Source of the DNA: Escherichia coli
GTDB lineage: Bacteria > Pseudomonadota > Gammaproteobacteria > Enterobacterales > Enterobacteriaceae
Reading direction: 5' to 3' (one strand)
NCBI RefSeq assembly: GCF_001677475.2
Contig: NZ_CP015229.1
DNA length: 64,000 bases
In this document: in pieces, positions 7,302-9,080 of the stretch
Position numbering within the stretch: position 1 is the stretch's first letter
Layout of the letters: the number at the start of each line of letters is the position of its first letter
Position numbers and translations under genes: made by a program
The notes under the pieces: generated by a model
What the model was told of the DNA's origin: nothing
The model's database searches: none
What the model saw: the letters and a program-made list of their open reading frames with translations, nothing else

Positions 7302-9080
7302 TTATGTGTTTAACAACTCATATTTCTTAATCTTGCGATAGAGCGTAGCAATGCCGATGCCCAGTTCATCAGCAACTTGCTTCTTGCTGTTATGACGTGA
7401 AAGCGCCTCGCGGATCATTTGCTTTTCCATCTCCTCCAGCGCCGTGCCGCCCGCATCATCGAGTGACAGGTGTGCCTCAGTGACCTCTGTTACATCACTT
7501 TGCTCCGTTGTGCCATTATTCAGCAGATTTGGCGGCAATAGCGTGCTGTCGATAACTTCACCTGAAGGAACAACGTTAACCAGATATTCCATCAAATTGC
7601 TTAACTCGCGCAGGTTTCCGGGCCAACGATGCTTACGCAATATTTCGACGACATCGGGAGCAATGCCAGGATAAACCGATCCCAGACGACGGGTATGCAG
7701 ATGTAAAAAGTAATGCACCAGTAGTTCAATATCTTCCTGACGTTCACGCAGCGGTGGCAGAGTTATCGGGATAACATTAAGTCGGTAGAAGAGATCTTCG
7801 CGGAATTTACCTTCGGCAATGAACTGGGCCAAATTCTGGTTAGTTGCAGAAATGATGCGAATGTCGACTTGTATTGGGCTACTGGCACCAATCGGCAGAA
7901 TTTCACGTGCCTCAATAGCGCGCAGTAATTTAGCCTGCAACATTAATGGCATATCACCTATTTCATCGAGAAACAGCGTGCCCGTATTCGCCGCCTGAAT
8001 CAACCCTGTTTTACCGTTGGCAGAAGCGCCAGTAAATGCGCCTTTAACATAACCGAACAGTTCGCTCTCCAGAAGCTGCTCCGGAATCGCGGCACAGTTG
8101 ATAGCAATAAAGGGTTTATTCCGTCTTCCGCTCAACTTATGGATTGCACGGGCGACGACTTCTTTACCCGTGCCGCTTTCGCCAACCACCATAACGCTGG
8201 ATGGGCTGGGTGCAATACGGCTAATGAGTCGTTTTAATTGCCGCATAACACGGCACTCGCCAACCAATTGTTCAATATGCGGTTCATCAGGTGCATTTGC
8301 TACAGAAAAACTGGTATGCGATTGGTGAAACGCCATTAAAAATAATTGTCGGCCCTGAATGTTATGCAATTGACCAATGATTAATTCACTTTTATCGTCC
8401 CACGAAACAATATGCTGCATATGTCCATGGGTAAAATTACTCTCAAATGTTAATGGTCTGAAACGGATAGGTTTCCCAATAATATTATTTTGTACAACAC
8501 CAAGTGTTTTTAAGGCAGTCTGATTAACAAACTGAACCCGACTTTCATCATCAACAACTAATACGCCCTGATCCATATTATCGATCATGGTCGCGAATAT
8601 TTTACTGATGTTATCTCCTGGCCCCTGATCCTCCAGAAGTTTCGAAACAAAAATGGTGGATATATGGCGAACGTAATCAGAAAATTCGCGTAAATTATCA
8701 CTGATATGTTCTTGTTGCTCGTGGGTAACGGCAATCAAACTTATCACCCCAACACAACGATCCTGTAAAATGACAGGCGTACCCAGAAATGCTTTTTCAC
8801 GGCAATTTTCTTTACTATCGCAACCTTCGCAAAGGGGATCGAAGCGAGATTGTGTCACAACTTTTTCAGTTTTCGTTTCCAGGACGTGGCGGAGCAGGCG
8901 TGAGTTGCCGCTCAACTGGCGACCAAGAAACTTCCCATACGCGCCAGTTCCGGCGACGCGACACAAGTTTTCATCAACGATCTCAACCTCAAGCTGCAAA
9001 ACGCTGGCAAGCATTCTGGCAAAACGCTGAATTGTCGGTTGAATTTGCATCAATACTGACTGCGTAGTAGCAAGCTCCAT
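7302..9080 (-). CDS. ygeV: sigma54-dependent transcriptional activator (enhancer-binding protein) with N-terminal sensory domain
   Basis: 592 aa; AAA+ sigma54-interaction motifs (GESGTGKE, GAFTGA) and a C-terminal helix-turn-helix. Confidence 0.9.
   Translation of the reverse strand: MELATTQSVLMQIQPTIQRFARMLASVLQLEVEIVDENLCRVAGTGAYGKFLGRQLSGNSRLLRHVLETKTEKVVTQSRFDPLCEGCDSKENCREKAFLGTPVILQDRCVGVISLIAVTHEQQEHISDNLREFSDYVRHISTIFVSKLLEDQGPGDNISKIFATMIDNMDQGVLVVDDESRVQFVNQTALKTLGVVQNNIIGKPIRFRPLTFESNFTHGHMQHIVSWDDKSELIIGQLHNIQGRQLFLMAFHQSHTSFSVANAPDEPHIEQLVGECRVMRQLKRLISRIAPSPSSVMVVGESGTGKEVVARAIHKLSGRRNKPFIAINCAAIPEQLLESELFGYVKGAFTGASANGKTGLIQAANTGTLFLDEIGDMPLMLQAKLLRAIEAREILPIGASSPIQVDIRIISATNQNLAQFIAEGKFREDLFYRLNVIPITLPPLRERQEDIELLVHYFLHLHTRRLGSVYPGIAPDVVEILRKHRWPGNLRELSNLMEYLVNVVPSGEVIDSTLLPPNLLNNGTTEQSDVTEVTEAHLSLDDAGGTALEEMEKQMIREALSRHNSKKQVADELGIGIATLYRKIKKYELLNT

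Follow-up and report, generated by a model that had tools for sequence, protein, structure and literature searches.

What controls the genes for anaerobic purine and urate degradation in Escherichia coli, and through which DNA sites does this control act? The question is raised by ygeV, an intact open reading frame (ORF) of 592 amino acids at 7302-9080 on the minus strand of the 64,000-nucleotide window of E. coli DNA analyzed here (contig NZ_CP015229.1; all coordinates refer to this window). In RefSeq E. coli genomes the gene is labeled ygeV, "sigma-54 interaction domain-containing protein," and both the ORFs and this annotation confirm its location between xdhABC on one side and the divergent ygeW-dpaL(ygeX)-ygeY-hyuA-arcC(yqeA) operon on the other. 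An initial annotation of the window had proposed that YgeV is the dedicated regulator of this cluster. We find that the four control regions named in that proposal share a palindrome, which is conserved together with sigma-54 promoters across genera and phyla, is the same as the upstream activating sequence (UAS) of the clostridial regulator DioR, and precedes operons that belong to the YgeV iModulon. This comparative evidence strongly supports the regulatory hypothesis, and YgeV is very probably the dedicated switch of the cluster.

A palindrome shared by four control regions

The regions upstream of xdhA (3212-3528), ygeW (9081-9450), ygfK (18854-19087), and uacT (34062-34397), in which a search for a common activator motif had been recommended, do contain one. 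Every inverted dyad of 5-mers with a gap of 0 to 8 was enumerated in the four regions, allowing at most one mismatch. A single dyad, TATCA-N3-TGATA, was present in all four, and any such dyad was recovered in only 3 of 300 Markov shuffles. The chance of meeting this dyad with at most one mismatch is 0.013 to 0.03 per region, but the enumeration is the fairer statistic because the pattern used for the per-region figure was chosen after looking. Across the window, the dyad has 43 matches with at most two mismatches, against 21.4 +/- 4.5 expected. Some copies lie inside genes, namely, a perfect one, TATCATCTTGATA, in ygeX (11081-11093), one with two mismatches in ygeY (12296-12308), and one with a single mismatch in mocA (18472-18484); these may be chance occurrences or internal enhancers.

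The copies in the control regions are found 140 to 235 bp upstream of the -24/-12 elements, with one to four copies per promoter. Relative to the predicted transcription starts, which lie near 3555, 9477, 19113, and 34424, they are centered at -152 and -131 for xdhA, at -235 and -206 (with an adjacent half-site) for ygeW, at -202 for ygfK, and at -143 for uacT. The uacT copy, ATATCAATATGAGAA, is identical in its 15 bases to the ygeW UAS at 9235-9249, and the likeness extends to TTAC. No UAS or promoter was found for yqeBC.

Conservation of these sites was examined at two depths. Five loci from other enterobacterial genera or lineages (L002, L081, L082, L084, and L085), in which YgeV is 59 to 78% identical, were compared with E. 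coli; the ygeW comparison left out an error-rich E. coli assembly (L086) and a locus with a deletion (L083). In the five loci, the ygeW and ygfK spacers are unalignable except for conserved islands, which include the dyads, CRP-like sites, and -24/-12 elements. Before ygfK, the half-sites TTATCA and TGATA are invariant across genera, and the three central bases vary. Within E. coli, 28 of 388 positions are variable in the xdhA spacer and 20 of 421 in the uacT spacer, and all of these lie outside the UASs, the CRP-like sites, and the consensus positions of the promoters; the only polymorphism within the xdhA promoter element falls in its N5 spacer.

Sigma-54 promoters and CRP-like sites

The initial annotation had noted sigma-54-like promoters before xdhA, ygeW, ygfK, and uacT. 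All four elements exist, and those of ygeW and ygfK are conserved, but their match to the consensus is not above chance: a scan of the window for TGGCAC-N5-TTGCW with at most two mismatches gave 44 matches against 45 expected in shuffles. Promoter calls from the consensus alone were rejected for this reason, and support for the promoters therefore comes from conservation and from the architecture that they have in common. At ygeW, CTGGCAC..TTATTGTTAG is kept in six genera as an island in an otherwise unalignable spacer, and CTGGTGYGAtTGTTGCT before ygfK is likewise kept in six. The -12 element of ygeW reads TTGT, not the canonical TTGC, in five of the six genera, a conserved deviation. A further ygfK candidate at 19078 was dropped, since it overlaps the candidate at 19087 and only the latter is conserved. 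Genomic systematic evolution of ligands by exponential enrichment (gSELEX) with RpoN holoenzyme gave a peak in the ygeV/ygeW spacer (PMC8743547). The same study reports another peak, which lies about 2.7 kb away, between xdhB and xdhC (PMC8743547); the -24/-12-like sequences nearest to it are TGGCGCATTTTGTGCA in xdhB (6606-6621, minus strand) and TGGCCTGATTATGGCT in xdhC (7106-7121, plus strand).

A CRP-like site occupies a near-fixed position in all four promoters, between -67.5 and -77.5. The common order of UAS, CRP-like site, and promoter strengthens the two weak promoter candidates, those of xdhA and uacT. Urate degradation in E. coli is described in the literature as glucose repressed, and the CRP-like sites at all four promoters fit this report. 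One group also mentions a Crp site native to the ygeV/ygeW spacer, which they replaced (bioRxiv 10.1101/2025.05.19.654654). No convincing IHF consensus site was found between UAS and promoter in any of the four cases, which leaves CRP as a possible source of the bend. Besides its conserved site at -67.5, the ygfK promoter has a perfect CRP consensus, TGTGAGTTCATTCACA, at 19008-19023 (about -97.5), which is only partly conserved in other genera.

YgeV as the probable enterobacterial counterpart of DioR

DioR was defined in Clostridioides, Clostridium, and Desulfotomaculum by Nie, Dong, and Yang (BMC Genomics 2019; PMC6615313), who listed its function as "Unknown" and whose regulon is predicted only. 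Its targets are dpaL/ygeX, ygeW, ygfK, ssnA, ygeY, yqeB, yqeC, xdh, and a purine permease, and the published sites include ATTTATCATAATGATAAGG, TATTATCATTTTGATAATA, and the C. difficile variant AATTCTCA...TGAGAATT (PMC6615313). A 2024 paper on C. difficile still terms DioR uncharacterized. The UAS of E. coli, TTATCA-N3-TGATAA, is the same as that of DioR, the core of the C. botulinum site ATTTATCATAATGATAAGG being that of E. coli 18901-18919, and the genes behind the sites before xdhA, ygeW, ygfK, and uacT match the DioR regulon.

Clostridia encode full-length YgeV homologues, 34 to 38% identical over residues 5-590, beside the same pathway genes. These proteins and YgeV have in common a layout of GAF domain with a three-cysteine (Cys3) motif, PAS domain, AAA+ domain, and helix-turn-helix (HTH). 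In a Sedimentibacter locus (L005), three perfect dyads directly downstream of the homologue gene are followed by TGGCACAAGTTTTGCT and then by ygeX-ygeW-ygeY-ygfK-yqeA-ssnA-xanQ. In Clostridium thailandense (L008), three perfect dyads in the same position are followed by TGGCATAAAAATTGCT, then by a gene that resembles dihydroorotate dehydrogenase, as judged by the N-terminal sequence alone, and by an xdh homologue. In this way the regulator is linked across phyla with the motif, the promoter, and the pathway genes. The recognition helix of YgeV, LGIGIATLYRK, is identical in the DioR-like regulators of both loci; that of a CdsR-like paralogue reads LGISRATLYRK. Overall identity to DioR-like proteins (36 to 37%) is similar to that to other paralogues (35 to 38%), and our tentative assignment of YgeV to DioR is based on context, motif, and recognition helix. 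On this evidence, YgeV is the predicted enterobacterial counterpart of DioR, a one-component GAF(Cys3)-PAS-AAA+-HTH regulator.

The two systems also differ. In E. coli, the sites before ygeW and uacT are hybrids that combine two half-site variants, TGATAA and TGAGAA, and the CRP-like site at about -68 or -78 in all four E. coli promoters is undescribed for DioR. In C. difficile, dioR is autoregulated; for ygeV itself we found no sigma-54 promoter. An ATGATAYTA island upstream of ygeV may be an autoregulatory site for YgeV and/or the -10 element (TAATAT, minus strand) of the ygeV promoter. In the library searched, we found neither a definition of YgeV sites in E. coli nor a paper in which YgeV and DioR are equated, and no extension of the DioR regulon to Enterobacterales in the papers that could be read.

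Activator core of YgeV and relation to known systems

The complete AAA+ sigma-54 activator core and HTH attributed to YgeV by the initial annotation are intact. Pfam assigned Sigma54_activat (PF00158) to residues 272-439 (E 2e-70), AAA_lid_14 to 445-528, and HTH_8 to 548-587 (E 3e-13); the sigma-54 contact loop GAFTGA is exact at residues 347-352, with Walker A (GESGTGK) at residue 300 and Walker B (DEIG) at 372. With these motifs, a Fis-type HTH, upstream dyads, and putative -24/-12 targets, YgeV has the sequence features of a bacterial enhancer-binding protein. NCBIfam holds no YgeV-specific model. Membership of PrdR was rejected, since this best NCBIfam match covers the AAA+ and HTH parts only and scores under its cutoff.

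Among solved structures, the closest PAS relative by sequence is DhaR of E. coli (PDB 4lrx), which has the same GAF-PAS-AAA+-HTH order as YgeV. The NCBIfam DhaR model aligns to YgeV residues 97-589 with 232 bits, far under its cutoff of 551. Binding of DhaK and DhaL controls DhaR, and its target promoter is of the sigma-70 type. The GAF-containing sigma-54 activators NifA, NorR, FhlA, and Aquifex Nlh1/Nlh2 are only 12 to 15% identical to YgeV, in which an additional PAS domain separates GAF from AAA+; to our knowledge, C-x2-C-x5-C is found in none of them. The prpBCDE operon, controlled by PrpR, offers a catabolic sigma-54 promoter that also needs CRP and is catabolite repressed. The four promoters studied here would resemble it, given their CRP-like sites and the glucose repression of the urate pathway, if CRP acts at them as we infer; PrpR differs in having a PrpR_N sensor and another UAS.

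Sensory region

The N-terminal sensory region, which the initial annotation had put at about 300 amino acids and left unassigned, is present but nearer to 270 amino acids in length, and it is now resolved into a GAF and a PAS domain. Pfam found nothing significant in the first 150 residues, with a subthreshold GAF match at 44-126 (E 0.03 to 0.3). PAS_8 matched residues 162-201 (E 2e-6), and profile matches included the PAS domains of DhaR (3e-8), WalK, and DosP; N186 of the PAS domain is near-invariant. Both a GAF fold and a PAS fold were recognized in the region.

A search with residues 1-271 against 1.84 billion cluster representatives (E <= 0.001) recovered 858 relatives (clusters at 50% identity), mostly of 560 to 600 amino acids and the same architecture. 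G44, C84, C87, C93, P102, and G111 are invariant in the family alignment A1. Of 94 full-length representatives of the family, 91 have the C-x2-C-x5-C motif, and in 66 of those 91 a glutamate follows two positions after the third cysteine; no invariant fourth ligand residue was seen. The predicted location of the motif is the connector of beta3 and beta4, which in GAF domains forms the cover of the pocket, and the motif suggests a metal, iron-sulfur (Fe-S) cluster, or redox center.

In E. coli FNR, the Fe-S ligands are Cys20-x2-Cys23-x5-Cys29, and B. subtilis Fnr uses three cysteines and an aspartate. The cysteine spacing of YgeV equals that of E. coli FNR, and Glu95 could be a fourth ligand. 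This is a resemblance only, since a GAF fold differs from the CRP/FNR beta-roll and the sequence contexts are unrelated. It is unlikely, in our estimate, that an Fe-S cluster labile to oxygen or redox change, or another metal center, is bound by Cys84-x2-Cys87-x5-Cys93(-x-Glu95) in the GAF lid of YgeV/DioR and its paralogues.

The motif also occurs in paralogues beside unrelated genes, such as a cysteine-desulfidase-like gene in locus L006. Since paralogues that control unrelated operons have it in common, the motif is a family property and no pointer to a purine. The L006 paralogue (6283-9562 of that locus) has a Cys3-GAF domain and the helix LGISRATLYRK and lies upstream of a sigma-54 promoter (8175); the gene past the promoter is judged cysteine-desulfidase-like from its N-terminal sequence alone, and the arrangement agrees with the published CdsR regulon. 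The sensor type therefore appears to be reused for other substrates. In a metagenomic enterobacterial contig (L083, 9762-11290), most of ygeW is deleted together with the spacer and with residues 1-136 of YgeV, which leaves a GAF-less YgeV of 429 amino acids (P0041, seven member sequences). Such a truncated sigma-54 activator might be constitutively active.

Proposed mechanism and alternative explanations

Taken together, these observations make it likely that YgeV is a one-component DioR-type sigma-54 activator, as far as the regulator, its site, and its promoters are concerned. The Fis-type HTH of YgeV would itself bind TTATCA-N3-TGATAA upstream of the xdhABC, ygeWXY-hyuA-yqeA, ygfK-ssnA-ygfM-xdhD, and uacT promoters, and the bound AAA+ ring would reach the sigma-54 holoenzyme by DNA looping and drive open-complex formation. 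The CRP site at -67.5 or -77.5 would make activation cyclic AMP dependent and probably gives the bend that IHF supplies elsewhere. The GAF-PAS region would keep the ATPase inactive until a signal arrives, the likeliest being, under anaerobiosis, urate itself or one of the early intermediates in its reductive degradation.

Published work bears on both regulon and signal. The four spacers precede the operons that make up the YgeV iModulon (NAR 2023). As quoted by Liu et al., Iwadate and Kato (2019) found ygeV to be involved in formate-dependent anaerobic urate consumption, and ygeV is given, in a citing passage, as required for urate degradation. Operons homologous to the cluster are induced by urate in C. 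sporogenes. The idea of a ligand from the pathway comes, indirectly, from this inducibility and the cited requirement for ygeV, and we put urate or an early intermediate as the direct ligand at about even odds. The initial annotation was roughly right that ligand and regulon are not settled, but it missed the work on IsrR (mBio 2022), the YgeV iModulon (NAR 2023), the RpoN gSELEX data, Iwadate and Kato (2019), and DioR.

Several observations weigh against YgeV as the purine-responsive activator of all four operons. The xdhA and uacT promoters fit the sigma-54 consensus poorly (8 to 9 of 12 positions), matches as good as these arise by chance inside genes, and their conservation was assessed within E. 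coli. The ygeW UAS is distant from its promoter (-206 to -235). The iModulon reaches its highest activity not with purines but with ethanol in knockouts of baeR or cpxR (NAR 2023). It also includes ygfT, the expression of which is reduced in a YgeV mutant (NAR 2023), yet on the minus strand of 34062-34482, the spacer shared with uacT, we recognized neither a sigma-54 nor a sigma-70 promoter for ygfT, nor an FNR element. Transcription of ygeV responds to indole in enterohemorrhagic E. coli (EHEC) (mBio 2022, PMC9426417), and the family-wide cysteine motif of the sensor gives no hint of a purine ligand.

An alternative account of the signal, compatible with the activator model, is that the GAF-PAS region senses not a purine but oxygen, redox state, or a metal through a cofactor at Cys84, Cys87, and Cys93 (Fe-S, Zn, or a reversible disulfide), or else contacts a pathway protein, in the way that DhaR does, so that the substrate specificity of induction arises elsewhere. 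The near-universal cysteine motif in the predicted pocket lid, its occurrence in paralogues that adjoin unrelated genes (L006), the kinship of the PAS domain with that of DhaR, and the anaerobic nature of the urate pathway all speak for it, but no fourth invariant ligand residue was found and at least one family member (L009) lacks the cysteines. Because the homologous operons of C. sporogenes are urate induced, some purine-derived input must reach the regulator, and we regard a redox or partner signal as rather less than probable. A quite different role is suggested by the description of the same gene product as IsrR, the indole sensing regulator of EHEC and C. rodentium (mBio 2022, PMC9426417): in EHEC, ygeV ranks with the genes that indole induces most, and IsrR activates expression from the LEE (locus of enterocyte effacement) without endogenous indole, which could make YgeV primarily a virulence regulator whose position in the purine cluster is incidental. 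That study, which concerns indole-dependent ygeV transcription and LEE expression and gives no binding site or ligand, leaves direct LEE control and the mode of indole action as open questions (PMC9426417), whereas the conserved targets found here are purine operons. It calls the protein an "orphan response regulator," yet YgeV has no Response_reg match in Pfam and its N terminus folds as GAF; without a receiver domain this label is inaccurate, and our result corrects it. The regulator, the motif, and the purine genes travel together from Clostridia to Enterobacterales. Moreover, the 7000-9500 stretch with ygeV was found in 5,283 of 5,426 complete E. coli genomes, and most E. coli genomes are not LEE pathotypes. 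A primary role in virulence is in our view improbable.

The dyads themselves could be sites of another factor, with YgeV binding elsewhere. Within the ygfK site is ATAATGATAA, a sequence also seen in the Fur-box consensus (GATAAT repeats), and an FNR-like TTGATACGTATCAC with one mismatch to TTGAT-N4-ATCAA overlaps xdhA UAS2 at 3425-3438. However, the half-site orientation and spacing of the dyad are unlike either consensus, its N3 center is free to vary among genera while the half-sites are fixed, and no FNR-like site was found in the other three spacers. The dyads are always found 140 to 300 bp upstream of a sigma-54 promoter, beside a YgeV/DioR gene, in two phyla. The Fur and FNR readings were rejected on orientation, spacing, and context, and binding by such a factor seems to us very improbable; we infer that YgeV itself binds the dyad.

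Features of the locus

The features described above are collected in Table 1. Past the ygeW operon, the window continues with yqeB, yqeC, mocA, ygfK-ssnA-ygfM-xdhD, xanQ, guaD, ygfT, and uacT, the last with its ATG at 34482. In four of the enterobacterial loci (L002, L081, L082, and L084), xdhABC is not beside ygeV, and yqeC and mocA are absent from the interval between ygfK and a short, divergent yqeB (about 265 amino acids). The composition of the cluster differs among genera, while the control regions of ygeW and ygfK remain conserved.

Table 1. Coding, domain, and putative regulatory features of the ygeV regulon in the window
Feature	Position	Strand	Basis or conservation
ygeV coding sequence, sigma-54 enhancer-binding protein	7302-9080	-	ORF, annotation, Pfam
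Fis-type HTH_8 DNA-binding domain	7320-7439	-	Pfam
AAA+ sigma-54 interaction domain and lid, residues 272-528; GAFTGA at 8025-8042	7497-8267	-	Pfam, motifs
PAS domain, residues ~158-250	8331-8609	-	Pfam PAS_8, profile matches, model secondary structure
N-terminal GAF domain, residues ~8-150	8631-9059	-
Invariant Cys84-x2-Cys87-x5-Cys93-x-Glu95 motif, predicted GAF beta3-beta4 connector	8796-8831	-	Translation CEGCDSKENCRE
xdhA UAS1, TTATCACATTGATTT, center ~-152	3396-3410		Dyad scan; invariant among divergent E. coli
xdhA UAS2, (c)ACTCATATTGATA(c), 21 bp from UAS1	3417-3431		Dyad scan; E. coli invariance
CRP-like site, xdhA, TTTTAACGTCATCACA, center -67.5, 2 mismatches	3480-3495		Invariant in E. 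coli
Sigma-54 promoter candidate, xdhABC, TGGCGTAAATCTTGCC; GG-N10-GC intact, weak consensus match	3529-3544	+	Only E. coli polymorphism in N5 spacer
ATGATAYTA island, 57-71 bp upstream of ygeV start	9137-9151 (core 9143-9151)		Conserved across genera
ygeW UAS core, half-site TATCACATTT and palindrome TATCAATATGAGA, center ~-235	9223-9249		Conserved, 6 genera
Third ygeW UAS element, TTATCAAACTGACGA; TTTATCA conserved	9264-9278		Dyad scan, footprint
CRP site, ygeW, TGTGATCAACCCCACA, center -77.5, 1 mismatch	9392-9407		Conserved across genera
Sigma-54 promoter, ygeWXY-hyuA-yqeA, TGGCACAGTTATTGTT	9451-9466	+	1 mismatch, 6 genera, gSELEX peak
ygfK UAS, perfect palindrome TTATCATAATGATAA, center ~-202	18904-18918		Half-sites invariant, 6 genera
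Half-site-like block TTTTGAGAAA	18930-18939		Conserved across genera
Block GTGATTTTAATTCTCAT containing AATTCTCA, C. difficile-type DioR half-site	18984-19000		Conserved across genera
CRP-like site, ygfK, TTCGAGCCGCCTCACA, center -67.5, 2 mismatches	19038-19053		Conserved across genera
Sigma-54 promoter, ygfK-ssnA-ygfM-xdhD, TGGTGCGATTGTTGCT	19087-19102	+	Conserved in 6 genera
ygfT/uacT spacer UAS, ATATCAATATGAGAA, center ~-143 from uacT promoter	34274-34288		E. coli invariance
CRP-like site, uacT, TGTGATTGCCTCCGCA, center -68.5, 2 mismatches	34348-34363		Invariant in E. coli
Sigma-54 promoter candidate, uacT, TGGCACTCCACGAGCA	34398-34413	+	Invariant among divergent E. coli

Implications

The predicted operator sites in E. 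coli, the proposed equation of YgeV with DioR, the fixed position of the CRP-like sites, and the assignment of the sensor as GAF(Cys3)-PAS are new here; the main ideas were already in the literature as separate pieces, and no new kind of system is revealed. If the Cys3 motif did hold a metal center, the 858-cluster family would be a previously unrecognized class of GAF-based anaerobiosis or redox sensors that gate sigma-54 catabolic operons jointly with a pathway metabolite, and this would explain why urate degradation in E. coli is confined to microaerobic or anaerobic conditions. The cluster encodes the pathway by which gut bacteria degrade urate and purines anaerobically; recent work links this pathway to gout and to the urate levels of the host, and efforts to engineer it in probiotic E. 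coli are under way. The operator dyads, the UAS-CRP-sigma-54 layout, and the mapping of the sensor make the control of this medically topical pathway directly testable, and possible uses include site mutations, the design of urate biosensors, derepression for therapy, cysteine variants, and ligand screens.

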